DNA from: Peptococcaceae bacterium UBA4068
GTDB lineage: Bacteria; Bacillota; Dehalobacteriia; UBA4068
Length of the DNA: 64,000 nucleotides
NCBI GenBank assembly: GCA_002382665.1
Contig: DFZA01000009.1
Coordinates: 294,495 to 358,494 of the forward strand
Reading direction: 5' to 3'
Under the pieces are notes generated by a model. That model was not told where the DNA came from. It searched no databases and saw nothing but the letters and a program-made list of their open reading frames with translations. Shown piece by piece: positions 6,250 through 60,040 of this stretch (position 1 is the stretch's first letter; the number at the start of each line of letters is the position of its first letter). The translations under genes and the position numbers were made by a program.

Positions 6250-6257
6250 TAAAAAAA

Positions 6258-6278
6258 CAAGCCGCTAAAAGCGGCTTG
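6258..6278. terminator. Terminator hairpin CAAGCCGC-TAAAA-GCGGCTTG preceded by A7 (left copy of a duplicated bidirectional terminator)
   Basis: Perfect 8 bp stem directly after the cls stop. An identical 21-mer recurs at 6537-6557 followed by T7. Confidence 0.8.
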
Positions 6279-6536: not shown

Positions 6537-6557
6537 CAAGCCGCTAAAAGCGGCTTG
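6537..6557. terminator. Second copy of terminator hairpin CAAGCCGCTAAAAGCGGCTTG followed by T7
   Basis: Identical 21-mer to 6258-6278. Overlaps the last codons (KKTSRF*) of the minus-strand gene 6544..7062. Confidence 0.8.
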
Positions 6558-7062
6558 TTTTTTTAGCTGCCTTACGACAGGCATACTGCAAACCAAACAC
6601 AGTTATCAGCAATGCCGCTGCAATACCCCAGATACCCAAACCAATACCGTTGGCATTCCCCTGTGCTGTTGTAATCATACCATAGCCGATATAGTAAAAC
6701 ATACCTACGCAGATTAGTTTGACCAAAGACAGTCCGGCAAATATAACCGCCAAGACAGGGACGGCATTCTCTTTGGTAATCGTCACGTTGAGATTAACCA
6801 TTTTGGGGAAAAAACGCACTAACGATATAACTATGTAAACTAAAATCATTATGCCGGCAAAAAATAAGATACTGTTTTTATTGCTCCAACTATCCGGCAT
6901 ACCGTTCGCGCCAAAATGGCTGGGAATCACATCAGGTAATGCGGCATATTTACTAAAAATTAATACTAAAGTAAGAATTAATCCAACAGCAGCCAATACT
7001 TCGCAGATAATTTCCATTTTGCTGCGAGGGATTTGCGGTAATTCGAAATCAATTTTGAGCAT
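6544..7062 (-). CDS. DUF1648-family membrane protein
   Basis: IPSHFGANGMPDSWSNK motif typical of DUF1648 (SdpI/YhfL-like), 4 TM helices. Confidence 0.6.
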   Translation of the reverse strand: MLKIDFELPQIPRSKMEIICEVLAAVGLILTLVLIFSKYAALPDVIPSHFGANGMPDSWSNKNSILFFAGIMILVYIVISLVRFFPKMVNLNVTITKENAVPVLAVIFAGLSLVKLICVGMFYYIGYGMITTAQGNANGIGLGIWGIAAALLITVFGLQYACRKAAKKTSRF

Positions 7063-7082
7063 ACCAACAACCTCTTTCTTTA

Positions 7083-7829
7083 TTATTCAATAGTCAGAAT
7101 GATCGGCTCTCCATCAGTTACTACAACAGTATGCTCAAATTGTGCAACTCTGTTATTGTGAGGTGTTTTAAGCGTCCAGCCGTCATTTTCCTCTAACACA
7201 TAATCGTCCCCTTCGGAAACAAACGGCTCTATCGCCAATACCATACCTGATTTGAGCAAGCGTTTATCCCGCTTTTCATGATAATTGTATATACTCTCAG
7301 GATCATCGTGAAGCGAATGACCAACGCCGTGTCCGCATAAATTGCGGATAGTTTTATAACCTTGCTTATGAGCTTCTTTTTCAACAATTAAACCCAGTTC
7401 ATTTAAGGGGAAACCATCACGGGCTGCCGCGATAGCTTTATCAAGAGCCGTCAGGCAACATGCAAATAATTTCTCGGTATTGTGCTTAACAGGCGGCACG
7501 GCGAAAGTTGACGCGGTATCGCTAAAGAAACCATCTTTAACCGCTGAGACATCAATATTTACTGTATCTCCGGCCTGAATAACCCTTTCGGATGGAATAC
7601 CATGAGCTACCACCTCATTTACGCTGATGCAGGTATGGCCGGGAAAATCGTAGCAGAAAATCGGCGCCGATTTTGCGCCGTAACTCTCCATTATCTGGCG
7701 TCCATATTCATCCAATTCTTTTGTAGTAATGCCAGGTTTTACTGCTTCGCCCATTTTACGCAGCGTAATTGCCGCGATCCGGCCAATTTCTCTCATTGCG
7801 TCCATTTCTGCAGCAGTAGTAATTATCAT
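7083..7829 (-). CDS. map: methionine aminopeptidase type I
   Basis: Pita-bread fold motifs (FCYDFPGH, HGVGHSLHDDP, LAIEPFVSEG), 248 aa. Confidence 0.9.
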   Translation of the reverse strand: MIITTAAEMDAMREIGRIAAITLRKMGEAVKPGITTKELDEYGRQIMESYGAKSAPIFCYDFPGHTCISVNEVVAHGIPSERVIQAGDTVNIDVSAVKDGFFSDTASTFAVPPVKHNTEKLFACCLTALDKAIAAARDGFPLNELGLIVEKEAHKQGYKTIRNLCGHGVGHSLHDDPESIYNYHEKRDKRLLKSGMVLAIEPFVSEGDDYVLEENDGWTLKTPHNNRVAQFEHTVVVTDGEPIILTIE

Positions 7830-7910
7830 TAATAGCCTCCTGAATGATTTATTTTAACATATAATATCACATTTCTACATTTGATGCAAAAATCCGCATC
7901 AGATATATAA

Positions 7911-8110
7911 GAGAACGGTCATTTACGACCGTTCGAGCCTGTAGACAAAGTATAAGGCTCCTAGACTGAGATAAAAGGCCAAGTCCTAGGCGGCAGCCAA
8001 GGCCAGGCCGGGAGCGTATACGGTAATACGTGACCAGCCTGGACTTTAGGCTGCCAACAACGGAATTGGCCTTTTATCTACGGTCTGGAACGGTCATTTA
8101 TGACCGTTCC
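7911..8110. repeat. Structured intergenic element: 154 nt long imperfect palindrome (7934-8087) bracketed by two direct copies of a 22 bp hairpin (GAACGGTCATTTA(C/T)GACCGTTC)
   Basis: Outer stem GATAAAAGGCC/GGCCTTTTATC; inner stems GGCAGCC/GGCTGCC, CCAGGC/GCCTGG and CGTAT/ATACG. The 22 bp bracketing hairpins are at 7911-7932 and 8088-8110. Confidence 0.65.
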
Positions 8111-8268
8111 TTATGCTTCGGCAGTCTACCTGACTTTTTTAAAGCTTCCCGTAATAAATACTCAATATGCCCATTAACACTGCGCAGCTCATCAGCGGCC
8201 CAACCTTCGAGAGCTTTATAAATATCGCCGTCTATACGCAGCGGAAAGCTCTTACGTTCGCTCATCGT

Positions 8269-9198
8269 TTAATACATGCTCCCAACATTGATTACGGGCT
8301 GTGACGAACGATCAGCGATGATGGCAACCATAATGTTATTAATCATGTTGAACTTGCGCTCATCGTCCAACTCAATAGAACTAATCTTTTGTAAATCATC
8401 AATAGCCATTGTCGCCATACCAACCGCACCGTCAACAATAATCCGCCTTGCCGCCAATATTGCCGAGGCTTGCTGCCGCTGAAGCATTGCACTGGCAATC
8501 TCGGTCGCATACGCCAGATGGGTCAACCGTGCTTCCAAAACCTCAACTCCCGCCTGTCCCAGGCGTGCAGAGGTTTCCTGCATTAATTGCGCCGATACTT
8601 CATCGGCATTGGCGCGCAGCGAAAATCCCTGCTCATCAAAATTATCATACGGATATTGGGCAGCAACATGACGCAACGATGTTTCGCTTTGGATCTCTAC
8701 AAATTCTTCATAGTTGTTAACGTCAAGTAAAGCTTTGGCGGCATCAACTACCCTGAATACAATAACAGCGGCTATTTCTATGGGATTACCGTTTATATCA
8801 TTTACTTTTAGCTTTTCACTGTTAAAGTTGCGTATCCGCAGCGATACTTTTTTAGATGTTGAAAAAGGTACCGTTAACCAGATACCGTTTTGGCGGATAC
8901 AACCGATATACCGTCCAAAAAAAATCACTACCGCAGCGGTATTAGGTTGAACAATCACCATTCCGGTCGCTAAAATTACAAATATAATTATACTAATAAC
9001 CGCAACAGTAATATAAAGGTTAGTATGCAGCATGACCCCGCTTCCAAGCAAATAAAAGCAATAGATACTTAACCCCAGAAAAATAATAATCAAAAGTAAT
9101 CCAATAAAGCCGTTGATTTTCCAAACAGGTTTTTCCGCGATTTGTTTATTTTCCTTGTCCATTAAAATCCTCCTAATTTGTTTCAAGAATAGCTTCAT
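8269..9198 (-). CDS. SPFH/band-7 domain membrane protein (stomatin/flotillin-like)
   Basis: N-terminal TM helices followed by an SPFH-like core with a C-terminal coiled-coil/Ala-rich region. Confidence 0.6.
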
Positions 9199-9285
9199 GT
9201 CTGATATATATATGATATCACATACATATCACTATTTCAAGTATATTGTATTAAATTATAATTTTTTTTAAAAAATAGCCTTCTG

Positions 9286-9714
9286 CTAAATTTTTTCCAC
9301 AATATTGATTTGCCAGTTTATATGATTAATATCATGCTGGGTTTGTTGTACTTGTTTTATTAAATCTGCGGCAGTTGCATAATCACCCTTTCCGGTATAA
9401 TAATTACTTAACGCTATTGATAATTGTTGTTGTTGATCTGATAATGTTTGTATTTGGTTTTGACGACGTAGGTAAAGCTGGCTGCAGCAATATTCGGAGC
9501 CGCCGGCAAAGAACCAGACCGCCGAAAAAACAAAAATTACAACCACTACTCCGCCGACAATTCTTAATAATACACGTCTTTTCAGCATTATTTTTAACCT
9601 CCGCAACAATCGTTTGCTGAGGTTTTTCTCTGCCAAAACAGCCAATACCTTTACACAAATACCAACAAATACCCCAGTAACAATACTATATCCGACAGAT
9701 TCTTTATGTCGCAT
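9286..9714 (-). CDS. hypothetical membrane protein
   Basis: 142 aa, one or two TM helices and a Q-rich C-terminal half. Immediately upstream of the SPFH gene. Confidence 0.4.
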   Translation of the reverse strand: MRHKESVGYSIVTGVFVGICVKVLAVLAEKNLSKRLLRRLKIMLKRRVLLRIVGGVVVVIFVFSAVWFFAGGSEYCCSQLYLRRQNQIQTLSDQQQQLSIALSNYYTGKGDYATAADLIKQVQQTQHDINHINWQINIVEKI

Positions 9715-9921
9715 TTATGCTTGTTTTCCAATCCTTAACGTCATCTTTATCGGAAAGCAATTATAATAAAGTAAACGGATGAGCCCATATAATCATTGAC
9801 ATACTAGGATCAAGGGCTTACCGGAAAAAGGATGGAGTGATCTATAATGGGAGTCATGCTGGCGGTTTCAGCAATTATTGCTCTGGCATAGTAAAATATC
9901 TGTTTTACGTCTTATTCAGGG

Positions 9922-10246
9922 GTGAGAATTTATTATCCAGATCATCTTATTTTTTTTACTGTTGCTGGTAGTGATCTACATACCCCTGGGGATATATTAG
10001 TTATAACAGACCAAAAAGTAATGCTTTCTGAATTATTATGCCCATCGAAACAGGCATTTATAAACGGCCATTTAACGCCAATCAAGTACGATTTGGGGAC
10101 TTTACGGAAACGATGCTTATAAAAGCGGGATATAAGCTTTGCGGTTCAATATGGCAAATATCCGCAGAAAACTGGAAATAAATCCCGGCGAGCCCAAATA
10201 TATCGTAACAGAAGTCGGCATCGGCTACCGTATGATCGAACAATAA
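9922..10246 (+). pseudogene. Decayed OmpR-family response regulator, winged-helix C-terminal fragment with frameshift and stop
   Basis: The frame ending at 10246 encodes RFNMANIRRKLEINPGEPKYIVTEVGIGYRMIEQ*, the OmpR wing signature. Just upstream, ...WGLYGNDAYKSGI* is interrupted by a stop. A further upstream frame reads LTPIKYDLGTLRK (helix alpha2-like). No receiver domain is present. Confidence 0.6.
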
Positions 10247-10341
10247 ATAGTATAAATATTATCCTAAAAAAAAGATGATATAGTTTTTTACTATATCATC
10301 TTTTTTTATTATTGAATATTACCTTTAAGTTTATTTGCAAT

Positions 10342-10617
10342 TTATGAAGTACGTCGCACGTTGACAATAGGAATATTAGCCAGTAGTGCCACTCCGTCAA
10401 CTTCCCTGCTTAATGACACCTCAAGTGCGCTCGTGTCTATTTCCATATACTTACCAATCGTTGCGATCAAATCCTCGCGGAGGTTTTCCATAATACTTTC
10501 AGATATATCAAGGCGGTCATGAACCAGCACCAGACGTAACCGTTCTTTTGCTATGTTTTTGCTGCTTAACTCGTCATCCTTGCCAAAAAAGTGAGCGAGA
10601 AAGCTGACAATACTCAT
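10342..10617 (-). CDS. minE: cell division topological specificity factor MinE
   Basis: MSIVSFLAHFFGK...AKERLRLVLVHDR. ATG at 10617 is preceded by a GGGGG Shine-Dalgarno. The longer tracker ORF to 10641 lacks an RBS. Confidence 0.85.
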   Translation of the reverse strand: MSIVSFLAHFFGKDDELSSKNIAKERLRLVLVHDRLDISESIMENLREDLIATIGKYMEIDTSALEVSLSREVDGVALLANIPIVNVRRTS

Positions 10618-10630
10618 ATCTTTTCCCCCT

Positions 10631-11428
10631 TTATTCTCCACTGAATAAGCTCTTGAGACGACTAAAGAAACTGTTTTTCTTAGGCGTCAAAGTCATTAAC
10701 GGCACCTCTTCACCACAGAGGCGATGGGCAATATTGCGATACGCCTGTCCGGGTAACGACGCGTCATCCATGACTGTCGGTTCACCGCGATTGGTTGAGA
10801 TAATAATCGCATCATCATCAGGAACGATGCCGAGCAGCTCCACTGCCAGAATACTAAGTATATCGTCAACACTCATCATATCACCGGTTTGGACCATATT
10901 GGTACGAATACGGTTAATGATCAAGCGCGGCGAACGAACTTCGGCTGCTTCCAGTAAACCAATGATTCTGTCGGCGTCACGCACAGCAGATACTTCAGGC
11001 GTTGTAACAACGATTGCTTCTTCAGCGCCGGCTATAGCATTTCTGAAACCATGTTCAATACCGGCAGGGCAATCGATAATCACAAAGTCAAATTCATCTT
11101 TAAGCTTATCGCAAAGCTCAACCATCTGATCTTCAGTAACAGCCGTTTTATCCTTGGTTTGCGCCGCTGGTAACAGAAACATATTCTCAAAACGCTTATC
11201 CTTAATTAGCGCTTGGTTAAGACGGCAATTTCCGCGCACCGCATCGACTATATCATAAACGATACGGTTCTCCAACCCCAAAACAACATCAAGATTACGC
11301 AGGCCGATATCAGTATCAACCATTACAACTTTTTTATCAAACATGGCTAGTGCCGTACCTAAATTAGCAGTCGTGGTAGTTTTACCAACGCCGCCTTTAC
11401 CGGAAGTAATAACTATTACTTTTCCCAT
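10631..11428 (-). CDS. minD: septum site-determining ATPase MinD
   Basis: Deviant Walker A GKGGVGKTT. Start MGKVIVITSGKGG at 11428 is preceded by AAGGAGG. Confidence 0.9.
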   Translation of the reverse strand: MGKVIVITSGKGGVGKTTTTANLGTALAMFDKKVVMVDTDIGLRNLDVVLGLENRIVYDIVDAVRGNCRLNQALIKDKRFENMFLLPAAQTKDKTAVTEDQMVELCDKLKDEFDFVIIDCPAGIEHGFRNAIAGAEEAIVVTTPEVSAVRDADRIIGLLEAAEVRSPRLIINRIRTNMVQTGDMMSVDDILSILAVELLGIVPDDDAIIISTNRGEPTVMDDASLPGQAYRNIAHRLCGEEVPLMTLTPKKNSFFSRLKSLFSGE

Positions 11429-11464
11429 CTCGTGTCCTCCTTGCAAATGAGCTAATTCCGCCAA

Positions 11465-11842
11465 TTATTTGGGTGTGTTATATTCTTCGATAATTACTTC
11501 GTCATCTTTAATCCTTGCCGTCTCCGGTCGATAAGATCTGTCTTTACTACAGCCGTCGGGAGGACGGGTTATGTGGGTAGCGATCCTCAATTGTGTCGGT
11601 ATCAATTCCAACGCCGTTATGGTAGCATCCTCATTACCGGTAGAACCGGCATGTACAACTCCACGCAATGTACCCATAACAACTATATGACCTACTGCCG
11701 CAACCTCTGCCCCAGGGTTAACATCACCTAATACTACTACATTACCATCAGAATTAATACTCTGACCGGAACGCAGTGTATGGTTAACCATTGTTGTCGG
11801 CAGATTGGTTAATCTATCCGGCCATTCCATTAAAAAATTCAC
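11465..11842 (-). CDS. minC: septum site-determining protein MinC, short form with the C-terminal beta-helix domain only
   Basis: 125 aa with the C-terminal MinD-binding region (VVVLGDVNPGAEV...). Located upstream of minDE. Confidence 0.7.
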   Translation of the reverse strand: MNFLMEWPDRLTNLPTTMVNHTLRSGQSINSDGNVVVLGDVNPGAEVAAVGHIVVMGTLRGVVHAGSTGNEDATITALELIPTQLRIATHITRPPDGCSKDRSYRPETARIKDDEVIIEEYNTPK

Positions 11843-11966
11843 TCCTCATATTTATATCATAACAGTTAGTTTTCTATATCCAATATCTTTTTCCTGCCGA
11901 TTATCAGGCTTTAATGATATTTAAAATCTTATAGCAGCTATTCTTCATAAGATATAACTTATTACA

Positions 11967-12178
11967 GCTTCCGCTTCCGCTTCCGCTTCCGCTTCCGCTT
12001 CCGCCTCCGTCTCAGTCTCAGTCTCAGTCTTAGCCCCAGCCTCTACCTCAGTTCCAGCCTCCGCCTTAGCCCCAGCCTCTATCTCAGTTCCAGCCTCCGC
12101 CTTAGCCCCAGCCTCGATCCCAGCCTTAGACTCCGCGTACGTGGATGTTACTGTTGTTGCTGCTGTTGCTGTTCTGCG
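11967..12178. repeat. Tandem-repeat tract: (CTTCCG)x7, (CTCAGT)x3 and a 36-mer x2, running into the poly-Gln codons of mrdA
   Basis: Direct reading of the sequence. Lies between the mrdA stop (12148-12150) and the minC start. Confidence 0.9.
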
Positions 12179-14004
12179 CCAAAGTATGCCTTAGCCACAT
12201 TGACAAATACTTTACCGGCGCTGGTACTGCCGTGGCCGCCATATTCGACAACGCAGGCAAAAGCAATTTCCGGATTATCATAAGGTGCAAAAGCAACAAA
12301 AACGCCATGGTTATCGTTCTCATCTGAAGACAAACCGGTCTGAGCAGTACCTGTTTTGGCGCCAAAACTGATGTCAAGCTGCCGGGCAAGACTGTAGGCA
12401 GTACCGCCCTTTTGCGTCACCATATACATACCTTTACGAACAGTTGCAAAAATTTGCGGATCAAGATCTATTTTTTGGGCCACTGTCGGTGTCGCTTCAT
12501 AAAGCAATTTACCAGAGCTGTCATAGGCCTCTTGAACCAGATAGGGTTTCATTCGCGCGCCGTTATTGGCCAGTGCTGCAATGTATGCTGCCAATTGTAT
12601 GGGCGTTGCTGAAGTATATCCTTGACCCATGCCGGTATAGTAACTGTCATAATCATGCCAATCTTTTTCCCAACCAGTAAATTTTGACGCTTTCCATTCA
12701 GCGGAAGGCATCAGTCCTGCTACCTCGCCTGGCAATTCAATACCAGTCTTACTGCCAAGTCCGAACACTGTACCGATTTCATGTAGTTTATCAATGCCAA
12801 CCCTATAGCCCATCTCTTGAAAGTAACTATTACAGGACACTGCCATTGCCTGATAGAAGTTTACATAACCATGCACGCCAGTACAAGCAGCGCGCCCATT
12901 TTTTCCCCAGTTCTTTGGATTACAATCCACCGTCTCCGAAGTACTTATCCCTGACGCCAACAGCGCCACAGCTGTTATTGGCTTAAATGTAGAACCGGTT
13001 GGATACGATGAAGCAATCGCACGATTAACGGTCGGCGTCAAATCTTCATCCCAATAGTATTTTGCTTTTTCAGTTGTTAAGCCATTAGCAAAATCATTGG
13101 AATCAATAAAAGGATAACTGGCCATAGCAATTACCGCGCCGGTTTTAACATTTATTACAACAGCAGCCGCTGCATCACATTTGGGTTGATCTTTCGCAAT
13201 CTGTTTCACGACATCTGACATTGAATCCTCCAATACTTTTTGAATACTGGAATCAATCGTTAACACCAATGTATCGCCCGCAACCGGCTCCGCGCTATAT
13301 ATAGTATCAACCTTACGGAAATTTGCCGTCACCTCTACCTCTTCAACGCCAGCTTCTCCACGTAATGAAACGGTTTTCCCATCAAAATCGGTTGTTTCCA
13401 TGGTTTTTTCCAATCCGGATTTGCCGATCCAGTCATTTACTAGATAACCGCTGTCGGAATTTTTCTTAAGTTCGCTTTCACTGATTTTACCAACTGTACC
13501 TAAAATATGTCCGGCCAAAGTACCTAAAGGATAATTACGCATTGGTTCTTCGGTAATTGTAACGCCAGGAAGCTCGTCACGCTTTTCCTCAATTGTATTG
13601 ATAATCTCCAAGCCCTCATCATAGCTATAACGTTTAAGTACTATCGGTTCATAGCTTGGATAATGGCTATCAATTGTTTTTTTAATAACATCCGCCGTTA
13701 ATTCCGGATCATTAATAATACCGGCAAGTTTTTTCGCCAAAGCTTTACTGTCATCAACATCACCGGCTGAAATAGAAATAGCAAACACCACTTCATTGTT
13801 GGCTAATAACACACCCTTAGAATCATAAATCAGTCCGCGGGGGGCAGCTACTGATAAAATCCTAACGCTATTTTGCTCAGAGACATCGGCCATAGCTTTG
13901 CCTTCAACAATCTGCAGATAAAATAGACGGCAAACTAAAATAATAAATAATATTATAATGAAAATAGTTAATATTTTTTTACGATGCTGAAACAACTTAT
14001 TCAT
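12148..14004 (-). CDS. mrdA: penicillin-binding protein 2 (elongation transpeptidase) with a poly-Gln C-terminus
   Basis: PBP dimerisation and transpeptidase domains (STFK, SCN, KTGT motifs). Position after mreBCD. Ends ...GAEQQQQQQQ*. Confidence 0.85.
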   Translation of the reverse strand: MNKLFQHRKKILTIFIIILFIILVCRLFYLQIVEGKAMADVSEQNSVRILSVAAPRGLIYDSKGVLLANNEVVFAISISAGDVDDSKALAKKLAGIINDPELTADVIKKTIDSHYPSYEPIVLKRYSYDEGLEIINTIEEKRDELPGVTITEEPMRNYPLGTLAGHILGTVGKISESELKKNSDSGYLVNDWIGKSGLEKTMETTDFDGKTVSLRGEAGVEEVEVTANFRKVDTIYSAEPVAGDTLVLTIDSSIQKVLEDSMSDVVKQIAKDQPKCDAAAAVVINVKTGAVIAMASYPFIDSNDFANGLTTEKAKYYWDEDLTPTVNRAIASSYPTGSTFKPITAVALLASGISTSETVDCNPKNWGKNGRAACTGVHGYVNFYQAMAVSCNSYFQEMGYRVGIDKLHEIGTVFGLGSKTGIELPGEVAGLMPSAEWKASKFTGWEKDWHDYDSYYTGMGQGYTSATPIQLAAYIAALANNGARMKPYLVQEAYDSSGKLLYEATPTVAQKIDLDPQIFATVRKGMYMVTQKGGTAYSLARQLDISFGAKTGTAQTGLSSDENDNHGVFVAFAPYDNPEIAFACVVEYGGHGSTSAGKVFVNVAKAYFGAEQQQQQQQ

Positions 14005-36876: not shown

Positions 36877-38739
36877 CTATTTAACATACTTGATCATATT
36901 CGCATATTCAGCACTCAGATCAATAGCATCCATGCCTTCCTTTGTGGGCACGCCATCTGGCGTGCAGCCACGCATCTCATAGTATTTATCAAGCATTTCA
37001 TTAAATTTATCTTTATCTAAAAATTGGCCTTCGGCTTCGCCGCCAGCAATCGGATCATTGAAATGGCGTTCAGGTAAATCATCATTTATACGTCTTAAGC
37101 CTTCACGAACGTTAAACATACGTGCCAGCATAGTAACGCGTGCGCCACACTCCATGTATGATTCTTTAGTATAGCCGATACCGGTAATAGCGTTGACCAT
37201 ATTGGTTGTCATATCCTCGCCATAAACACCGAGGAATGCCGGGAAGTTGCAAGTGCCGGCGCAATCGGCAACCGCCGTACCATAATTCTGGGTATAGATA
37301 GTCATTTCCGGTTTACCCTCATAAGAGAAACGGTCGCACATACCAAAGTTTTCCGGAGGAGTATAACATTTATTATGGTCGCCGCCGGTAAAGCAAGTAG
37401 CCATCGACAGAGCCATAGATTTCATGCCTCTGACATCATATGCGGCATGCTCAAGACCCTTACTTTGAATAGCGAAATATTCGCTGCCCTTACCTACCTT
37501 TTTGGAGGCAATCTTAACACCGTCAGTCAGTAAAGCGCCAAGACCTTCCTTATAGGCTATGTCATGGATTAACTGTATTAAAGCATCGGCATTACCAAAG
37601 TGTAAATCCAGGCCAAATGTATCTTCTTTGGTGAAGATGCCTTTTTCATAGCATTCCATTGCCCAGCCAATTGATACACCTGTAGACACTGTATCAAGTC
37701 CCAGCTCATCGCAAAGTCTGTCGGCGGCAATCTGAGCACCGATATCTTTGTTACCGACTTCTCCGCCCAAAGCAAACATCGATTCATATTCAACAACAGA
37801 CATCGCACCGGCATATTTGCCGTTTTTGACTAATTTTAATTGCGCACAAGTCATCGGGCAACGATAACAACCTTCTTTACCGACATTGAGTTCGGAATGG
37901 GGTTTTTCTCCGACATAATCGACATAATCAGGAATACCGCTGGTCTGCCAGTTTTTAGAAGGATAGACGCCGCGTACCTGATAACCGTCTGAGCCCACCA
38001 ATGTACCTGAAGCTTTAAAACCTTGACAGAACGGATTTTCTGAGAAAGTTTTAACTGTTTGTTTGACCAAATCATTAAAAGTCTCGGGATCAGCAACTTC
38101 TACTTCCTGTTTATTGGCTGCATGAAGCGCAACGCCTTTCAAGTTTTTGGAACCCATTACGGCACCGAAACCACGACGGGCAAATGCACGCATCATATCA
38201 TCACAAAAAACTCCCGCCAAATTACTTAAATTTTCACCGGCTGGGCCAATTACAGCTGATTTAATATCTTCATCATGAAGTTCTTGTTTCATTAAACGCA
38301 TTGCATCCGGTGTTTTGCTACCCCAAATAACAGCAGCAGGCTTAAACTGGACTTTGCCATCTTTAATATACAGATATGTAGGTTCTTCAGCTTTGCCTTC
38401 GATTATGATCATATCATAACCAAGCATTTTGAGTTCTGTCGGGAAATAACCGCCGGCAGTTGCAACACCAATGGTACCGGTAGCAGGAGACTTACTGGTC
38501 AGTGAGCAGCGGGATGAATAAATAGCTTTTGATCCGGTAATCGGACCGACTGCAAAAATTAGCTTATTTTCCGGACCAAGCGGATCAATACCCGGTTCTA
38601 ATTCATCATACAGATACTTAATTGCCAAGCCACCGCTACCGATGAATTTTACAAAATATTCATCAGGTATTACTTCTTCACGGTAGCTCTTGTCCGACAG
38701 ATTGATACGTAGCAGCTTACATTTAACTCCTTTTAACAT
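36877..38739 (-). CDS. tungsten-type aldehyde:ferredoxin oxidoreductase
   Basis: AOR N-terminal and alpha domains. Probable start MLKGVKCKLLRINLS is preceded by GGGAGGG. The tracker ORF extends to 38841. Confidence 0.85.
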   Translation of the reverse strand: MLKGVKCKLLRINLSDKSYREEVIPDEYFVKFIGSGGLAIKYLYDELEPGIDPLGPENKLIFAVGPITGSKAIYSSRCSLTSKSPATGTIGVATAGGYFPTELKMLGYDMIIIEGKAEEPTYLYIKDGKVQFKPAAVIWGSKTPDAMRLMKQELHDEDIKSAVIGPAGENLSNLAGVFCDDMMRAFARRGFGAVMGSKNLKGVALHAANKQEVEVADPETFNDLVKQTVKTFSENPFCQGFKASGTLVGSDGYQVRGVYPSKNWQTSGIPDYVDYVGEKPHSELNVGKEGCYRCPMTCAQLKLVKNGKYAGAMSVVEYESMFALGGEVGNKDIGAQIAADRLCDELGLDTVSTGVSIGWAMECYEKGIFTKEDTFGLDLHFGNADALIQLIHDIAYKEGLGALLTDGVKIASKKVGKGSEYFAIQSKGLEHAAYDVRGMKSMALSMATCFTGGDHNKCYTPPENFGMCDRFSYEGKPEMTIYTQNYGTAVADCAGTCNFPAFLGVYGEDMTTNMVNAITGIGYTKESYMECGARVTMLARMFNVREGLRRINDDLPERHFNDPIAGGEAEGQFLDKDKFNEMLDKYYEMRGCTPDGVPTKEGMDAIDLSAEYANMIKYVK

Positions 38740-38888
38740 TAAAAAATTCCCTCCCTGCATATTTTTGTTTAACAAATAGGATATATCCACATAACCAATA
38801 CTATTAAATGGTATTGTTACTAAATGGCAGTCTAATAACAAATCATATGCAGATATACCCTATTCATAAACTTTATAATTAATTATAT

Positions 38889-38972
38889 ATTACCAGAAAA
38901 GATTGTGTTTTACCACAAAAATTTTTGTTTTACCACAAAATATTTTTGTTTTACCAGAAAATGTTGGGTAAT
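38889..38972. promoter_or_regulatory. Four tandem approximately 21 bp direct repeats (TTACCAsAAAAnnTTTTTGTT-like) upstream of the AOR gene
   Basis: Units at 38891, 38911, 38931 and 38952, phased at two helical turns. The last unit overlaps the ecfT stop codon. Confidence 0.6.
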
Positions 38973-41910: not shown

Positions 41911-43095
41911 TTAAATTAGTCTTAAGACAGCAGCTTCGCCAACTGCTATATCCAGCTTTATACCGAAGTGCGCAAAAGCTTTTCCAATCATCGCCAGATA
42001 CGTAGGAACCATAATCGGGTTTGCTGCATTACCCATATGTTCAAATCCAATGATAATTTTCGCATGTTCGCCAATTCCGGTAATCATGAACAAACCATAT
42101 TTTTCATTTACGTAGTGACAGAATTCATCTGTATCAACGCCTGCGGGGCATTTAAAGGTTGTGCAGCTATTGGCAGCGATATCTTCCGTTGCCGCCCAAG
42201 TCTCCAAACCCATCGCCCGTAATCCGGCACGAAAAGCTTTGGCGCATTGCGCATGACGTGCGACAACATTATCTATTCCTTCCGCCAATATCTCATCGGC
42301 AGCAACACTGATGGCATAAACCAGTGAAACAGATGGGGTGCAAGGAAAAGTAGCCCTGTCGGCATCGATCCACATTTCTTTCCAATCCAACAGGCACATT
42401 TCGCTCCATCTGGGCGGATTTTTCTTCTTCATTTTATCCCAAGCTCTATCGCTAACAGCAACCATGCTTAATCCCGGAGGAGCTCCGATACATTTCTCAG
42501 AAGCGGCAACCACGACATCAGCTTTCCATTCATCAATATTTACATCAGTACTGGCAACGCCGGAAGCGCTATCAACAATAGTGATAACCCCTCTTTGATA
42601 TGCCAATTGACAAATTTCTTTTGCGGGATTTATTGTTCCCGAAGGAGTTTCGGATTGAACTATCGACAGAACTTTGATATCCGGATTTTCATTAAGCGCT
42701 TTTTCTACCGCTTCTACTGGTACAGCTTGATTGTATTCAACGGCTATTTCTATTGTCTTTCCGCCATAAGTATTAATCCAGCCTTCATATCCCTTACCAT
42801 AGTATCCGGACACAACATTTAGGCATTTGTCCCCTGGAGCAATCAGTCCATATGCAGCAGCTTCCAGAGCTAACAGAGCATCTCCTTGAACAATAACAAC
42901 ATCATTCTTAGTTTTCATGATTTGCTGATACTTTTTCACTGTATCCGCAAAATATTCAATAAAAGCAGAGCTGTGATAATGCAATAACGGCTGGCTTCCG
43001 GCCGCTAAAACATACGGGGATACTATACTCGGAGCAGCAGTTTTTTCAAACATTGGCCATCCATTACCTAGAACAGGCTGTCCAGTCTTATTCAT
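41911..43095 (-). CDS. class V (AGXT-family) PLP-dependent aminotransferase, paralog 1
   Basis: Fold-type I class V pattern (HSETPSGT, KC.GAPPG). Start MNKTGQP is preceded by AGGGAG. About 75 percent identical to 43511..44695. Confidence 0.75.
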   Translation of the reverse strand: MNKTGQPVLGNGWPMFEKTAAPSIVSPYVLAAGSQPLLHYHSSAFIEYFADTVKKYQQIMKTKNDVVIVQGDALLALEAAAYGLIAPGDKCLNVVSGYYGKGYEGWINTYGGKTIEIAVEYNQAVPVEAVEKALNENPDIKVLSIVQSETPSGTINPAKEICQLAYQRGVITIVDSASGVASTDVNIDEWKADVVVAASEKCIGAPPGLSMVAVSDRAWDKMKKKNPPRWSEMCLLDWKEMWIDADRATFPCTPSVSLVYAISVAADEILAEGIDNVVARHAQCAKAFRAGLRAMGLETWAATEDIAANSCTTFKCPAGVDTDEFCHYVNEKYGLFMITGIGEHAKIIIGFEHMGNAANPIMVPTYLAMIGKAFAHFGIKLDIAVGEAAVLRLI

Positions 43096-43446
43096 ATTTA
43101 CATCTCCCTTATTTATTGGCATTAAATCATTAACCGAGTAAACAAACTACAAAATATATATATGTTAATAAATTCCCCGACATAACATTACTCAAAAAAA
43201 AGAAAAGTTCTTCTCGCATATAAACCTTCAAACAAACACTCTCCCAACCCCTGCAGGGGTACTCGTATTTTTTCGCACGCGAATAGAGCGTGGTTGTATT
43301 TACGCGTCGGCTTTGCTCGACGCATATAATAAAAATCGAGAAGTCGTAATTTACGACTTCCCGATTAACATCATTTTTAGGTTGTTCTTAAAATTCAACT
43401 ATAATCAAGGACTATGCTAACAGCTCATAAAATAATTAACGAGAAT

Positions 43447-43490
43447 ACCTAAAGGTTTGAAGTCAAATGCTCGTTACTAGAGCATTTGAC
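43447..43490 (-). terminator. Terminator hairpin of aminotransferase paralog 2 (14 bp stem)
   Basis: GAAGUCAAAUGCUC-uaguaac-GAGCAUUUGACUUC directly after the stop, with a weak U tail. Confidence 0.6.
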
Positions 43491-43510
43491 TTCTTCTCCT
43501 CAATCTAATC

Positions 43511-44695
43511 TTATAACAGCTCTAAAGCTGCGGCTATGCCAGCTGCGGTATCGTATTTCTTACCAAAGTCCTCAAATGTTTTCCCGATCATTCCCAATAC
43601 GGCAGGAACCATGATCGGGCGGGCAGTATAGCCCATATGACCTATTCTAAGTATCAGTTTGGCATGGTCGCGCAATCCAGCTGCAATAAATAAACCATAC
43701 TTTTCACGCAGATGATAACGGAATTTAAGAGTATCAATGCCTTCAGGACATTTAAAGGTCGTGCAGGCGTTGGCAGCAATATCATCAGTAGCAGCCCAAG
43801 TCTCCAGACCCATCGCACGCAGGCCGACACGATATGCTTTTGCGACTTGAGCATGACGCGCAATAACATTATCAAGGCCTTCAGCCAACATTTCATCGGC
43901 GGCAGCGCTGATACCATATACCAGTGATACGGAAGGAGTGCAAGGATAGCCAGCGCAGTCGGTATCAATCCACATTTCTTTCCAATCCAACAGGCACATT
44001 TCGCTCCATCTGGGCGGATTTTTCTTTTTCATTTTATCCCAAGCTCTATCGCTTACGGCTAACATGCTCATTCCGGGAGGTGCGCCAACACATTTCTGAG
44101 AACCGGTTACCAGAACATCGGTTTTCCAATCATCAACATTAACATCATAACCGCCAACTCCGGAAACGCTATCAACAATAGTGATAACTCCTCTTTCATG
44201 AGCTAATCGGCAGATATCTCTTGCGGGGTTTAGAGTGCCGGAAGGAGTTTCGGAATGCACCATTGAAAGAACCTTAACATCAGGATTTTCGTTCAGTGCC
44301 TTTTCTACGGCTTCAACAGGTACGGCCTCGTTATATCCAACGCCAACTTCGATTGTTTTACCACCGTAAGCATCAATCCAGCCTTCGTATCCTTTGCCAA
44401 AGTAACCTGAGACAACATTGATGCATTTGTCTCCAGGGGCAATCAAACCATATGCAGCAGCTTCTAAAGCAAGTACAGCATCACCCTGTACTAAAACAAT
44501 ATCATTTTTGGTTTTCATGATTTCTTGATACTTTTTGGTAGTATCCTCGAAATATTTCATGAAAGCAGGGTCATAGTGATGCAGTACCGGCTGACCGGTT
44601 GCCGCCAAAACATATGGCGAAACCTCGGTCGGGCCAGCGGCCATGGTGAACATCGGCCATCCCTTTGTCGGAACAGGCTGTCCAGTCTTACTCAT
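43511..44695 (-). CDS. class V (AGXT-family) PLP-dependent aminotransferase, paralog 2
   Basis: Same family as the paralog above. Start is preceded by AAGGAGAG. Confidence 0.75.
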   Translation of the reverse strand: MSKTGQPVPTKGWPMFTMAAGPTEVSPYVLAATGQPVLHHYDPAFMKYFEDTTKKYQEIMKTKNDIVLVQGDAVLALEAAAYGLIAPGDKCINVVSGYFGKGYEGWIDAYGGKTIEVGVGYNEAVPVEAVEKALNENPDVKVLSMVHSETPSGTLNPARDICRLAHERGVITIVDSVSGVGGYDVNVDDWKTDVLVTGSQKCVGAPPGMSMLAVSDRAWDKMKKKNPPRWSEMCLLDWKEMWIDTDCAGYPCTPSVSLVYGISAAADEMLAEGLDNVIARHAQVAKAYRVGLRAMGLETWAATDDIAANACTTFKCPEGIDTLKFRYHLREKYGLFIAAGLRDHAKLILRIGHMGYTARPIMVPAVLGMIGKTFEDFGKKYDTAAGIAAALELL

Positions 44696-45441: not shown

Positions 45442-46002
45442 CTAAATTGACTTCACCTCTCTACCTTTTTGTTTTTTACCAAATTGGGAAATTTGAGGAT
45501 AAGCTTTTTTAACAACAAAGACGAGCGGGATAGCAATAATCGCAGCAACTACCTGCTGAACGATCTGACTTGGAAAGTCAACAAGCGCGGGGCCAAAGCC
45601 ATACAATACTAACATTGCGAGAAAGTAACCACTGGCGTCAACAATACTACCCCATATCCAGCCTATAAAAATCCATTTAAGTGTGTAACCACCGGCGCGG
45701 GCAATCAAGCCGGCAACAAGCCCCTGAGAACCATGAATAATCATTGAAAAGATTATCCACTGAGGATAACCCGTAACCAAGTCACCAATACCTGTACCAG
45801 CAGCGGCTGCGATCATACTGATCCACGGTCCAAATGTAAATGAAACCCAATAAATACCAACATTAGACAAATTCATATAACCTTTTGTGGGTGCCAACGG
45901 TATTCTCAGAGCGATTGTCAAAAAACAGACCAGAGCAATAAGCACCGCAACCAAAATTACCATACGCAAATTCAATTTTCTTGCAAAATTTTCTTTTGCC
46001 AT
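45442..46002 (-). CDS. putative ECF transporter substrate-specific (S) component, paralog 1
   Basis: About 186 aa with 5-6 TM helices and an S-component-like N-terminus (VILVAVLIALVCFLTIALRIPL). Start MAKENF is preceded by GAAGGA. Confidence 0.5.
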   Translation of the reverse strand: MAKENFARKLNLRMVILVAVLIALVCFLTIALRIPLAPTKGYMNLSNVGIYWVSFTFGPWISMIAAAAGTGIGDLVTGYPQWIIFSMIIHGSQGLVAGLIARAGGYTLKWIFIGWIWGSIVDASGYFLAMLVLYGFGPALVDFPSQIVQQVVAAIIAIPLVFVVKKAYPQISQFGKKQKGREVKSI

Positions 46003-46215
46003 ATATCCTTCTTTCTCTATGCCGGCAAATAAAAATAAAAATCTATAGGTTATTTTTGCAAAAATCATGCTATGTTATACCTCAAATATTAAGAATCAAT
46101 AATGATTTTGTAATATGAATCTTATTTATAGCCCAAGTAGGTAGTTTGCCAATAAAATTAAACAAGAAGCTGTAACCATGTACCGCTCAAAGAAAAAATA
46201 GATATTGAAAGAAAA

Positions 46216-46251
46216 GGACCTCCCATTGCAGAATAAAACAATGGGAGGTCC
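46216..46251 (-). terminator. Rho-independent terminator after S-component paralog 2
   Basis: 13 bp stem GGACCUCCCAUUG, followed by a U-rich tail on the minus strand. Confidence 0.8.
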
Positions 46252-46398
46252 TACTATCGGCATTCGGTAAAAGTAATAAATAATTGCCAAATAATTTATG
46301 TTTTTCTGTTGCACATATGAAATATTACATATTATCAATCTTATATGCTTGATACGCCGTTAAATTACAAATTTATCGCATGTATAATTAAATTTGAC

Positions 46399-46950
46399 TT
46401 ACTGCTCTTCCCATTTCTGGGTTTTGCCGAGTTGAGAAATCGGAGGGTAAGCTTTTTTAACAGCATATACGAGCGGGATACCAATAATCACAGCAACAAT
46501 CTGTTGAATTACCTGTCCCGGGAAGTCAACAACTGCGGGGCCCCAACCATACATCCAAGCTGTTGCGCCGAAGTAGCCAAGACAGTCTACGATGCTGGCA
46601 ATAAACCAACCTAATAACATCCATTTAAGTCTATAACTACCTGCTCGGGCAATCAAGCCGGCAACTAGACCCTGGGCACCATGAATGATCATTGAGAAGA
46701 CCATCCACTGAGGATAACCCATAACAGCGTCAGCAATACCAGTACCAATACCACCTGCGATCATGCTGATCCACGGACCAAATGTAAATGAAGCCCAATA
46801 AATACCAACATTAGACAAATTCATATAACCTCTTGTGGGCGCCAGCGGTATTCTGACAACAATTGTCAAAACACAGATCAAAGCAATAAGTACCGCAATC
46901 AGAGTAACCGTACGTGAATTCAAAGTATTTGCTGATTTTTCTTTTACCAT
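46399..46950 (-). CDS. putative ECF transporter substrate-specific (S) component, paralog 2
   Basis: Paralogous to 45442..46002. Start MVKEKS is preceded by AAAGGAGG. The tracker ORF extends to 46989. Confidence 0.5.
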   Translation of the reverse strand: MVKEKSANTLNSRTVTLIAVLIALICVLTIVVRIPLAPTRGYMNLSNVGIYWASFTFGPWISMIAGGIGTGIADAVMGYPQWMVFSMIIHGAQGLVAGLIARAGSYRLKWMLLGWFIASIVDCLGYFGATAWMYGWGPAVVDFPGQVIQQIVAVIIGIPLVYAVKKAYPPISQLGKTQKWEEQ

Positions 46951-47336
46951 AAAAACAACCTCCTTTTTTTTCTTTTTTGATCTGGACAATTATAAAACGA
47001 GTTCTTCGGTCATAATTAAGGACTGGGAACAAACGCTCGGTACTAGCATTCATTCTCCGTTCCCTCATCAACATAATAATATTTGCGAGCGTTCAACTTT
47101 ATGCAAACGTTTCTGAATAACAACCCCTTAAAAAATAAAATATAATTAAAAGCAAACTATGATACGATTCAGTATTATAGTCTGCTTTATTTAAGGGATG
47201 TTATTAAATAGGCGATCATTATCAAAATGAGGAATTAAAGCTCCATCATGGCAAATCGGTGAAAGAAATGAAGGCATTTATTGTAATACATACATTACTA
47301 CAATTATGAGCCGGCCTTTGCATGAGTTAAAAAAAC

Positions 47337-51096: not shown

Positions 51097-51275
51097 AAGC
51101 CGCTAGTTGCGGCTTCAGACTGTCAAAAAAGTGTTCAGCGGGCCGAGAAACGAGCGAGACCAGGCGCGTTCGAAACCGGCGACGCAGGCGCATAAAAGAT
51201 GCGTCGAGGAGACGGGGACGGACACAACGACGTATCGCGAAGTTTATCGACACGCTGAAGCCACTAGTTGCGGCT
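51097..51275 (+). repeat. Multi-copy intergenic element (core 51116-51257) flanked by a 19 bp direct repeat of the terminator hairpin AAGCC(G/A)CTAGTTGCGGCTT
   Basis: 5' GACTGTCAAAAAAGTGTTCAGCGGGCCGAGAAACGAGCGAGACCAGGCG ... 3' ACGACGTATCGCGAAGTTTATCGACACGCTGA. The hairpin copy at 51097-51115 carries the A7 run (a U run on the minus strand). Confidence 0.85.
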
Positions 51276-51301
51276 TGGTGTTATCGGGTTTATTGGGTTA
51301 A

Positions 51302-57153: not shown

Positions 57154-57268
57154 TAAATTTCTCCGATTTTCTCATTTATTGTTAATTAATGTCCCCTGAA
57201 CAAAACAAAAACTAAAGCAAATCGAAGCATGCGTGAGCATCTTTCAAGTTTAGGCGTTTTTGATTTTT

Positions 57269-57418
57269 CCAAGTGCAAAACTTTGCACTTGGTGGGGCGT
57301 TTTTTTAAAAGCGCCGGTTCAGTGAGACATCAATGAGTGCTGCACAGATTGAAAACGGTACGTTTTCAATCTTTTACGCGGCTTCTGCCGCGTGAACAAA
57401 CCGAAAATCGGTTTGTTC
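57269..57418 (-). other. Cluster of five consecutive perfect hairpins in the udg 5' leader
   Basis: Minus-strand order: GAACAAACCG-N5-CGGTTTGTTC (57394-57418), CGCGGC-N4-GCCGCG (57377-57392), TTGAAAACG-N3-CGTTTTCAA (57349-57369), GGCGC-UUUUAAAAAAA-GCCCC (57291-57315), CCAAGTGCAAA-N2-TTTGCACTTGG (57269-57292). Confidence 0.6.
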
Positions 57419-57429
57419 AGTAGACACTC

Positions 57430-57458
57430 ATTATATTATAATAGCAAGAGCAAGTCAA
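57430..57458 (-). promoter_or_regulatory. Consensus sigma-A type promoter TTGACT-17-TATAAT reading toward udg
   Basis: Minus strand TTGACTtgctcttgctattataaTATAAT. Perfect -10, near-perfect -35, 17 nt spacer. Confidence 0.6.
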
Positions 57459-57491
57459 AATTTAAAGTGGGATGTTTTATCACCTCACTAA

Positions 57492-57633
57492 GACTGTCAA
57501 AAAACGCACAGCGAGCCGAGAAACAAGCGAGACCAGGCGGCAGGGAGAGCCTGCTAGGGGACGCACTAAAACGTACGTGACCAACGCCGGGGCTTCCGAC
57601 AACGACGTATCGCGAAGTTTATCGACACGCTGA
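57492..57633 (+). repeat. Multi-copy intergenic element with a divergent core, downstream of argG
   Basis: 5' GACTGTCAAAAAACGCACAGCGAGCCGAGAAACAAGCGAGACCAGGCG, 3' CGACAACGACGTATCGCGAAGTTTATCGACACGCTGA. The core is replaced by unrelated GC-rich sequence. Confidence 0.8.
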
Positions 57634-57656
57634 GTGGGGCGTTTTTAACGCCCCAC
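57634..57656 (-). terminator. argG 3' hairpin GTGGGGCGTT-N3-AACGCCCCAC without a U tail, abutting the element
   Basis: Perfect 10 bp stem directly after the argG stop. A degenerate similar sequence (AAAGTGGGATGTTTTATCACCTCACT) lies on the other side of the element at 57465-57490. Confidence 0.5.
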
Positions 57657-57673
57657 TTTATTAATAGTTGCTA

Positions 57674-58870: not shown

Positions 58871-58941
58871 TACTGTAACCTCCTAATGATTTTGTTTATA
58901 TATCAAACTAAAAAACAACATCGAGAAACAAAATATATATT

Positions 58942-59082
58942 GAGACTGTCAAAAAGTGTTCAGCGTGCTGAGAAACGAGTGAGACCAGGCGCGGTCGAAA
59001 CCGGCGACGCAGGCGTATAAAGATACGTCGAGGAGACGGTGCTGACCGCAACGACGTATCGCGAAGTTTATCGACACGCTGA
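58942..59082 (+). repeat. Multi-copy intergenic element between argG and argF
   Basis: GAGACTGTCAAAAAGTGTTCAGCGTGCTGAGAAACGAGTGAGACCAGGCGCGGTCGAAACCGGCGACGCAGGCGTATAAAGATACGTCGAGGAGACGG...ACGACGTATCGCGAAGTTTATCGACACGCTGA. Flanked by ATATAT(T) on both sides. Ends 5 nt from the argF stop. Confidence 0.85.
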
Positions 59083-59086
59083 TATA

Positions 59087-60040
59087 TTATTTATCCTGCA
59101 TAATCAAGGCCATTACCGCCATTTGCGCAAACAGGCGGTTCTCCGCCTCATCGAACACTACCGACTGCGCGCCCTCTATTACTTCGTCGGTAATTTCCAA
59201 GCCGCGCTTGGCAGGCAGGCAGTGCAGCACAATTGCATCCTTCTTGGCGACGGACAACAACTTATCATTAAGCTGGTAAGATTGCAGCGCTTTGATCCTC
59301 TTTTCCGCTTCGGCTTCCTGCCCCATACTGGCCCAGACATCGGTATATAACACATCGGCGCCTTGGGCGGCCGCCAGCGGGTCGGCAATTACTTTAACGG
59401 AACCGCCGTTTGCTAATGCATCTTTAGTCGCCAGCTCAAAAATATGCTGATCCGGCTGATAACCTTCCGGAGAAGCAATCACAACCTCCATGCCAAGTTT
59501 GGCGCCGGCAAACATCAGTGAATGCGCCATGTTATTACCGTCGCCGAAATAGACCATTTTCAAGCCTTTGAGTTCGCCTTTGTGTTCACGAATCGTCTGC
59601 ACATCAGCTAAAGCCTGACAAGGATGCAACAAATCGGTGAGGCCGTTAATTACCGGGATATCGGCAAACTGTGCCAATTCCAAAACATCGTCATGACTAA
59701 AGGTCCGGATCATAATACCGTTTAGGAAACGCGATAGGGTACGCGCCGTGTCTTTGATCGGTTCACCGCGGCCAATCTGCAAATCGGCTGCGGAAAGGAA
59801 CAGACCGACGCCGCCCAGGTAATAAATGCCGGTCTCAAATGAAACACGGGTACGGGTTGAATTTTTTAGGAAAATCATTCCCAGCGTTTTGCCCTGCAAA
59901 TAATTAATCGCCTGACCGGCCTTTTTTTCTCGCTTTATATGATCGGCGACATCAAGCATATAGACGATGTCTTCATGGGAAAAGTCGTGCAGCGTGATAA
60001 AATCCTTGCCGGCAAATTTTTTGTCCAGTTTCATCATCAT
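59087..60040 (-). CDS. argF: ornithine carbamoyltransferase
   Basis: STRTR, HCLP and SMG motifs, 317 aa. Confidence 0.9.
   Translation of the reverse strand: MMMKLDKKFAGKDFITLHDFSHEDIVYMLDVADHIKREKKAGQAINYLQGKTLGMIFLKNSTRTRVSFETGIYYLGGVGLFLSAADLQIGRGEPIKDTARTLSRFLNGIMIRTFSHDDVLELAQFADIPVINGLTDLLHPCQALADVQTIREHKGELKGLKMVYFGDGNNMAHSLMFAGAKLGMEVVIASPEGYQPDQHIFELATKDALANGGSVKVIADPLAAAQGADVLYTDVWASMGQEAEAEKRIKALQSYQLNDKLLSVAKKDAIVLHCLPAKRGLEITDEVIEGAQSVVFDEAENRLFAQMAVMALIMQDK

Follow-up and report, generated by a model that had tools for sequence, protein, structure and literature searches.

Bacterial MITEs such as ERIC, Correia/NEMIS, RUP and bcr1 are non-coding sequences of ~100–200 nt that are dispersed in intergenic regions and carry inverted-repeat arms. 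They fold into long hairpins, are flanked by target duplications, occur as internal indel variants and can be nested in one another (PMC3184786, PMC10969869). The element that we describe here is alike in all these respects. However, the duplications generated by such MITEs are short and fixed (for example, TA or 5 bp), whereas our element usually duplicates a whole hairpin of 19–26 bp. Neither the MITE reviews nor a full-text literature search yielded a case of whole-hairpin duplication by a MITE. The kind of element is known, and what appears to be new is the structure-defined duplication of an entire target hairpin, together with the corresponding empty sites.

The choice of targets by structure has been described for IS1272 and TnSha1, elements of the IS1182 family in staphylococci that insert at terminator hairpins (PMC4923244). 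By analogy with the element described here, their targets are hairpins with no common sequence, often confirmed terminators; insertion takes place in either orientation, and a cruciform model has been proposed (PMC4923244, PMC5678879). Nevertheless, both elements delete their target hairpins (PMC4923244), the stem-loop being removed or replaced without duplication by IS1272, in contrast with our element, which duplicates it. In pathway b of Fig. 13 in PMC5678879, a whole stem-loop would be duplicated if the element ends were joined at the 5′ feet of a cruciform. That pathway was drawn as a possibility for IS1272, and the authors did not document it (PMC5678879).

A palindrome is also duplicated by Cas1–Cas2, in that case a 28-bp repeat, which could reflect cruciform geometry (PMC4940900). 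As an analogy, Cas1–Cas2 and casposases would resemble our element in their double-ended integration at palindrome borders and in the duplication of the palindrome on both sides (PMC4940900). This likeness is one of geometry only: Cas1–Cas2 is sequence- and leader-specific and works on repeats of fixed length, whereas arbitrary hairpins of variable length are used here, and no cas genes or CRISPR arrays were found in the window, i.e. the whole 64-kb stretch of DNA that we analysed. Lastly, IS200/IS605-derived palindromic elements and REP/REPIN-RAYT systems are described as small non-coding repeats located at gene ends, with hairpins recognized as folded ssDNA and a strand bias tied to replication (PMC3333891), in which they appear to be similar to our element. 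Unlike the latter, IS200/IS605 and REP/RAYT systems produce no target duplication; they depend on a Y1 gene close by and on a short target or guide motif that is fixed, neither of which was seen here.

A family of small non-coding repeats

The window harbours five copies of the element, every one of them on the + strand. The copy that was the subject of the earlier note, wB, occupies positions 51117–51257 (141 nt, subfamily 1, 164.8 bits). Copy wA is found at 58943–59081 (139 nt), between argF and argG, and wC at 57491–57632 (142 nt); the latter belongs to subfamily 2 and had been missed in the earlier list of copies. With 255 nt, wD (6281–6535) is enlarged by two internal modules of ~50–70 nt at 6344–6388 and 6438–6507, and wE (1–112), cut at the window start, consists of the end of a module and the 3′ half of the element. 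The ends that a full-length partner of the element would share are NAGACTGTCAAAAA... and ...GTTTATCGACACGCTG. A 19-mer and a 22-mer motif of its ends occur five and four times in the window, as opposed to 0.02 and 0.00 expected occurrences, which puts this repeat family far beyond chance.

The element is thus small and multi-copy, with a typical length of 139–143 nt. It is also non-coding: the lengths of 139, 141 and 142 nt differ by numbers that are not multiples of three, which rules out a coding function, and no ORF is conserved across the copies. At all five window copies the flanking genes are antisense to the element. At the 5′ junctions, one variable base separates the left target duplication from AGACTG or AAACTG, namely C at 51116, A at 57490, and G at both 58942 and 6280. 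It agrees neither with the right flank nor with the empty site, and across the copies all four bases occur at this position.

Beyond the window, we recovered ~25 further copies by scanning public collections and then searching with nhmmer and a covariance model; they come from two MAGs, several metagenomes and one IMG/VR contig. Among the 13 matches to the 3′ 19-mer in genome contigs, only those of the two MAGs, Peptococcaceae UBA5757 (L001) and a Bacillota MAG (L012), are real, the others being at chance level. The metagenome scan gave 26 loci, including five chance matches within coding DNA (L014, L018, L020, L028 and L036), and the viral contigs contributed a single real copy, which is enlarged (L046), besides two chance matches. 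The G+C content of the host DNA ranges from 40% to 62% across the copies. For the analyses of structure below, we aligned 22 copies from the window, the two MAGs and several metagenomes.

Three subfamilies can be distinguished, with common arms and a different centre. Some copies are enlarged by internal modules of 50–90 nt, which are almost confined to the element and always lie in its orientation. In addition to the two modules of wD and the one at 1–42, modules are present in L021, L022, L034, L039 and L046; they are inserted after GNCG at several positions (for example, ACCTAGCTGGCTTTTACCTTGCGGTAAAACCGCAGCTAATGCAC...GCTTCGCG) and may represent expansion segments or, nested in the element, a mobile unit that is smaller still. 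Three modules are found in the 356-nt copy of L046 (positions 210–565 of IMGVR_UViG_3300000032_000251). Its terminal location on a contig that was classified as viral may indicate prophage carriage or a misclassified contig.

Copies are also found inside or next to each other. At L031 (3395–3535), a subfamily-3 copy has entered a subfamily-1 copy at the 3′ foot of the hairpin that forms the tip of its fold, with a duplication of ~3 bp and a deletion of 9 nt. At L024 (6149–6281), a subfamily-1 copy is broken off in the 5′ arm of its tip hairpin and immediately followed by a subfamily-3 copy. The element's own hairpin seems to attract further insertions. A different arrangement was observed on the − strand of L017 (1150–1420), where a hairpin similar to the first module, GCTGGCTTTTACC-TGCT-GTAAAACCACAGC, lies between two diverged copies of a unit comprising a terminator-like hairpin and GGTGCGGCAGAAGG; the latter corresponds to the 3′ end of a tRNA gene encoded on the opposite strand. 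The arrangement resembles a second small insert bounded by a long, hairpin-containing duplication.

Searches for a known identity or a partner of the element gave negative results. At the gathering thresholds of Rfam 15 the whole window had no match, and in E-value mode two copies gave only sub-threshold matches, mostly over the flanking terminator hairpins. There are no tRNA or tmRNA genes in the window, and a BLAST search with one copy against Escherichia coli genomes, plasmids and phages was negative. According to NCBIfam and Pfam searches with 20 proteins of the window, these are encoded by housekeeping genes only, with no transposase, and we found no integrase there and saw no Y1/HUH gene. 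No full-length partner carrying either end motif was detected in the genome, metagenome or viral contig scans. A parent IS with the same ends and a transposase was thus found neither in these contigs nor in the window.

The host is a spore-forming member of the Bacillota, with dpaA and a strong gene-strand bias, and its close relatives come from metagenomes of hydrocarbon-degrading enrichments. The window also has other repeated features. Two pairs of tandem paralogues are found at 41911–44695 and 45442–46989, namely class-V aminotransferases with ~70% DNA identity and ECF riboflavin-type S components with a period of 948 bp and 77–81% identity. Three direct repeats at 38877–38969, with a unit of ~32 nt containing TTTTACCAGAAAA and spacings of 20 and 41 nt, lie just upstream of an aldehyde:ferredoxin oxidoreductase gene (36877–38841, − strand); they may form an array of regulator binding sites.

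Empty sites and duplicated target hairpins

We compared the window with syntenic contigs of close relatives. L041 and L042, with an ArgG protein 97% identical to that of the window, are devoid of the element at the positions of wA, wB and wC, and L047, from the same sample, is syntenic with positions 1–13000. Altogether, empty sites were found in close relatives at all five window positions. The closest relative has no copy in ~34 kb of syntenic DNA, as opposed to five in the window, and relatives whose ArgG is ~80% identical have no copies either. The five window copies thus represent recent, lineage-specific insertions. In L043, whose ArgG is 98% identical, the wA copy is present and the wC copy has been secondarily truncated.

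At three of the sites, wB, wC and wD, a single terminator hairpin in the relative corresponds to two identical or nearly identical ones in the window. The flanks of wB carry two copies of AAGCC(G/A)CTAGTTGCGGCTT, where L041 has the single hairpin AAGCCGTTATTACGGCTT. The left copy, AAGCCGCTAGTTGCGGCTT at 51097–51115, forms with the A-run on its left the − strand terminator of the dGTPase gene, and the right copy, AAGCCACTAGTTGCGGCTT at 51258–51276, has one mismatch relative to it; only the left copy scores as a terminator, on the − strand. The hairpins bordering wC are AGTGGGATGTTTTATCACCTCACT at 57466–57489, which is decayed, and AGTGGGGCGTTTTTAACGCCCCACT at 57633–57657, versus a single AGTGGGACGCGTTTAGCACCCCACT at 11208–11232 in L041. 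The site of wD has a 23-bp hairpin of a bidirectional terminator, ACAAGCCGCTAAAAGCGGCTTGT, at 6257–6279 and an identical copy at 6536–6558, where L047 has one bidirectional terminator, AAAAAAGGCCGCTACTAGCGGCCTTTTTTT, with its hairpin at 7560–7576. In the terminator scans of wD, the − strand terminator falls on the left copy, and its + strand counterpart on the right copy.

At the two other sites, the element is likewise absent from the relatives. Copy wA is inserted at a non-hairpin target and flanked by a 7-bp duplication, ATATATT (58935–58941 and 59082–59088), and in L041 the corresponding intergenic spacer of 59 bp has no element. The left flank of wE is outside the window, and L047 has a single hairpin at the equivalent position. 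Next to wC, the window also contains ~250 bp between udg and the element that are missing in L041, where the entire spacer is 90 bp. This segment (57200–57430) comprises perfect or nearly perfect hairpins at 57269–57292, 57346–57372, 57373–57396 and 57393–57419, followed by a strong promoter-like site on the − strand (57458–57430).

The same pattern holds for the family. In 14 of 21 copies, a duplication of 19–26 bp abuts both ends of the element and folds end to end as a hairpin. Longer hairpins go with longer duplications, and the duplicated sequence varies between loci: the duplicated flanks form hairpins of −6 to −24 kcal/mol that are unrelated in sequence, and no flank motif is shared across insertion sites. 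The A-run remains on the left and the T-run on the right of the duplicated hairpins. As the hairpin is duplicated to both sides, neither neighbouring gene loses its terminator, and the element extends both 3′ UTRs. The element is therefore an insertion absent from close relatives, with the whole target hairpin present on both sides afterwards. Nevertheless, the seven other copies have a duplication of ~5 or 7 bp, a one-sided hairpin or no recognizable duplication; hence, the stagger is not always set by a hairpin.

These data place the element relative to known systems. Like MITEs, it is bounded by target duplications, here of 7 bp or 19–26 bp, and has empty counterparts in relatives, at 5/5 sites in the window; like IS1182/IS1272 elements, it uses hairpin targets without a common sequence. 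Several other assignments were discarded. Deletion or replacement of the stem-loop, as for IS1272, does not agree with the duplicated target hairpin. An IS200/IS605-derived element, which would lie 3′ of a fixed motif of 4–5 nt and have subterminal hairpins in place of inverted repeats, is at odds with the target duplication, the variable 5′ junction and the lack of a shared flank motif. REP/REPIN-RAYT systems, with their GC-rich palindromes of 20–40 nt in inverted pairs and a RAYT gene in the genome, are at odds with the single 140-nt foldback bearing a 5′ tail and with a window in which no Y1 gene was seen. The variable duplication lengths, the 5′-defective copies and the 5′ junction base that looks untemplated led us to consider target-primed retrotransposition, which was rejected, as there is neither a reverse transcriptase nor a 3′ tail; moreover, the clearest 5′-truncated copy, the L043 orthologue of wC, is a secondary deletion. 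We also rejected an attC site, as GAGAAAC and GTTTATC do not fit RYYYAAC ... GTTRRRY and the copies are solitary at gene ends rather than in cassette arrays, as well as CRISPR, bridge-RNA and omega-RNA readings, for which the targets are unrelated and the defining boxes or neighbouring genes absent.

A conserved rod-like fold

The earlier note had proposed that compensatory changes in an internal hairpin reveal a conserved nucleic-acid structure. In wB this hairpin, GGCGCAT-AAAAG-ATGCGTC, is found at 51187–51205 of the + strand, and in wA it reads GGCGTAT-AAAG-ATACGTC (59012–59029). As had been claimed, the T-to-C change on the 5′ arm of wB relative to wA is matched by an A-to-G change on the 3′ arm, so that C51191 pairs with G51201, and wD (6281–6535) has CGTGT-AAAAG-ATACG with a G.T wobble. 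Other details needed correction. The partial copy at 1–112 was said to carry GCGTAT-AAAG-ATACGT and actually reads TCGTAT-TAAAG-ATACGT, and the tip hairpin of wC, missing from the earlier comparison, is ACGCAC-TAAAAC-GTACGT. A CGGTCGAAACCG tetraloop hairpin described as conserved in three copies is exact only in the copy starting at 58943, those starting at 51117 and 6281 having CGTTCGAAACCG and TCGTCGAAACCG, respectively.

With RNAalifold, the 15 unexpanded copies fold into one rod, of which the earlier hairpin forms the tip. The rod consists of an unpaired 5′ tail of ~20 nt (AGACTGTCAAAAAAGTGGT), helix 1 (CAGCG..GAGAAAC with GTTTATC..CGCTG), helix 2 (GCGAGAC with GTATCGC), a variable helix 3 and the tip hairpin. 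In the MAFFT alignment of these copies, 94.7% of the cells are paired and 12 pairs are doubly changed, compared with 4.7±1.2 in shuffled alignments (0/500 as high) and 2–6 in slid controls. The figures for the model-based alignment of 22 copies are 94.0% and 14 pairs, versus 5.8±1.4 in shuffles (again 0/500 as high) and 5–8 in slid controls. Covariation along the whole rod thus bears out the view that the structure is conserved rather than neutral junk, and it holds when more copies are aligned.

The strongest covariation is in the central stem. Helix 3 alone, in the 22 copies, has 87.4% of its cells paired and 6/7 pairs doubly changed, a number reached in 3/500 shuffles, with 2–5 in slid controls. 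The tip hairpin alone is paired in 95.9% of the cells, and only two of its six pairs are doubly changed, which is within the range of shuffles (85/500) and slid controls (0–3), although its seven doubly changed cells exceed the 2.1±1.0 of the shuffles (0/500). Taken alone, the tip hairpin is only modestly supported. It is real and conserved, yet merely the tip of a larger conserved fold. The local CGGT-CGAA-ACCG hairpin fares no better than controls, with 50.0% of the cells paired in 15 copies, 1/4 pairs doubly changed, 488/500 shuffles as high and 2–4 in slid controls. We rejected it, as the same bases pair over a long range within helix 3.

The conservation is not evenly distributed along the rod. 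The arms of the element, invariant in sequence, show strong complementarity from position ~21 up to the 3′ end, and each has two CGAGA/TATCG boxes about one helical turn apart, with an invariant G.A mismatch at each box centre (22/22 and 21/22 copies). Subfamily 3 has CCAGA/TATGG in both boxes, the neighbouring G-C pair being flipped to C-G in parallel and the G.A mismatch kept. In the central stem, the sequence is free to vary while complementarity is kept. By eye, ~10 of the outermost 15 bases of wB and wA match as an inverted repeat, indicating weak outer TIRs. The invariant, mismatch-bearing arms and the variable, complementary centre look more like protein recognition sites combined with a structural need than like an RNA gene. 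Nevertheless, covariation alone is no proof of single-strand folding, as parallel changes in the two arms are also expected for protein-bound inverted repeats.

Strand bias and possible modes of movement

Copies on the same contig share one strand (5/5, 4/4 and 2/2), an outcome with a chance of ~2^-8 if orientation were random. Their orientation is independent of the polarity of the occupied terminators, which, judged by the A- and T-runs, are − strand-only in three cases, + strand-only in four and bidirectional in four. As both orientations occur relative to the terminator, host read-through would carry the + strand at some loci and the − strand at others. The GC skew in the orientation of the element is negative in 16/21 loci, the + strand being the C-rich strand, also in 8/9 loci of at least 7 kb; in the window, the genes and the GC skew indicate that the − strand is the leading strand. 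This suggests, from the skew and gene strands, that the insertion polarity is set by replication. Alternatively, the uniform orientation could stem from selection, e.g. linked to the dominant direction of transcription, instead of from the mechanism.

The functional strand of the element was to be read, according to the earlier note, from a G-U wobble as a marker of the transcribed strand. Paired columns do contain more G.T than A.C (46 vs 13), yet one conserved opposing position is C.A in 17/22 copies, and the RNA folding energies of the two strands are alike, the + strand being favoured in 13/22 copies (p=0.24). We thus rejected both pair counts and folding energies as indicators of the strand.

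In our view, the most satisfactory explanation, with a probability of roughly 60%, is a ~140-nt non-coding, non-autonomous foldback MITE that is moved in trans and whose ends are joined to hairpin or cruciform targets at their feet. The targets it prefers are terminator hairpins, whatever their sequence. A trans-acting transposase would bind the conserved boxes of the arms, and each element end would be joined to a different strand of the target palindrome, at opposite feet. The palindrome is probably extruded as a cruciform or hairpin that brings these feet together. Gap repair would then duplicate the target hairpin. As the duplicated segment coincides with the palindrome at any length, the joining points are apparently set by the target structure. 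The foldback would have been kept because the mobile or recognized form is the folded strand, and a link with replication may explain why the copies of a contig all have one orientation. Against this reading, no partner or transposase was found in the contigs scanned or in the window, the outer inverted repeats are weak and preceded by a variable 5′ base, and seven of the 21 copies have no duplicated hairpin. We therefore favour a role of the structure at the DNA level, for mobility, given the mobile insertion, the empty sites and the duplication of target hairpins. The earlier note had left the choice between a functional RNA and a structured ssDNA intermediate; it is the DNA option that these data favour, and not the RNA one.

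Movement as ssDNA at replication forks, with an HUH enzyme of the IS200/IS605 or REP/RAYT type that recognizes the folded element with its two G.A boxes and the terminator hairpins on the exposed template, seems unlikely to us, even though it would account for the single orientation per contig, which goes with GC skew and not with the polarity of the terminator, for targets defined by structure with no common sequence and for a foldback conserved over the whole element along with its mismatches. Folding with DNA parameters is also better for the + strand in 19/22 copies, but this asymmetry may be an effect of base composition. Moreover, the known HUH Y1 elements leave their target unduplicated and insert beside a fixed motif of 4–5 nt, in contrast with the motif-less duplications of up to 26 bp observed here; we could not build a simple single-strand insertion model that yields hairpin, element and hairpin in that order, and the window showed no HUH gene. 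It is improbable that the complementarity has no function of its own and is a by-product, either of ends co-evolving with a transposase that binds dsDNA or of mismatch correction from arm to arm. That all four boxes changed in parallel in subfamily 3 does resemble a shift in protein specificity, and many compensated cells are differences between subfamilies and thus correspond to few independent events. However, covariation is strongest in the central stem, far from the ends, where several pair types occur within one subfamily, and every subfamily retains the difference of G versus T that sets the left boxes apart from the right ones; correction between arms would erase this difference.

We also consider it rather improbable that the fold serves an RNA function, as a 3′-UTR stabilizer, an RNase III substrate or a small RNA, and that the element spread because this RNA was useful. 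Covariation with G.U-tolerant pairs would agree with such a role, as would the position of the element between a hairpin lacking a T-tract and one possessing it, which would lead to co-transcription into host 3′ UTRs; in addition, activity at the RNA level is described for other bacterial MITEs, such as ERIC, Correia and bcr1 (PMC3184786; PMC10969869). Nevertheless, nothing speaks specifically for the preference for a functional RNA expressed in the earlier note. Searches for promoter-like sites within the element and next to it were negative, as was the comparison with Rfam, and with either orientation relative to the terminator, the transcribed strand would depend on the locus. The five window copies, moreover, are antisense to their neighbours. 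The RNA folding energy does not distinguish the strands, and folding z-scores of only −1.85 (+ strand) and −1.25 (− strand) indicate an unremarkable stability. Furthermore, the best-conserved parts are the invariant mismatch boxes and not the helices, and the absence of the five copies from close relatives speaks against a conserved host function tied to these loci. A bolder and doubtful proposal is that the element is the footprint of an undescribed, structure-guided transposition, in which shape would be recognized both at the donor (the foldback with two G.A boxes) and at the target (any hairpin or cruciform), the ends would be joined at the feet of the target, the structure of the target and not the enzyme would set the length of the duplication, and the replication fork would set the polarity of insertion. 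The enzyme could then come from a family that has not so far been connected with such behaviour, e.g. be Cas1-like, RuvC-like or HUH, rather than a DDE enzyme of the IS1182 type.

If transposition of the foldback MITE is directed by the shape of the target, the filled and empty sites in hand represent a natural test of the cruciform-foot model proposed for IS1272, which CRISPR spacer integration mirrors. For the host, each flanking gene keeps a hairpin beside its own T-tract after insertion. The 3′ UTRs would gain ~165 nt of strongly structured RNA with termination preserved, and the insertion would be nearly harmless. A mobile element can thus settle in terminators nearly free of cost. Elements of this kind make terminators seem more numerous than they are, and they can pass for structured RNA genes in covariation screens.
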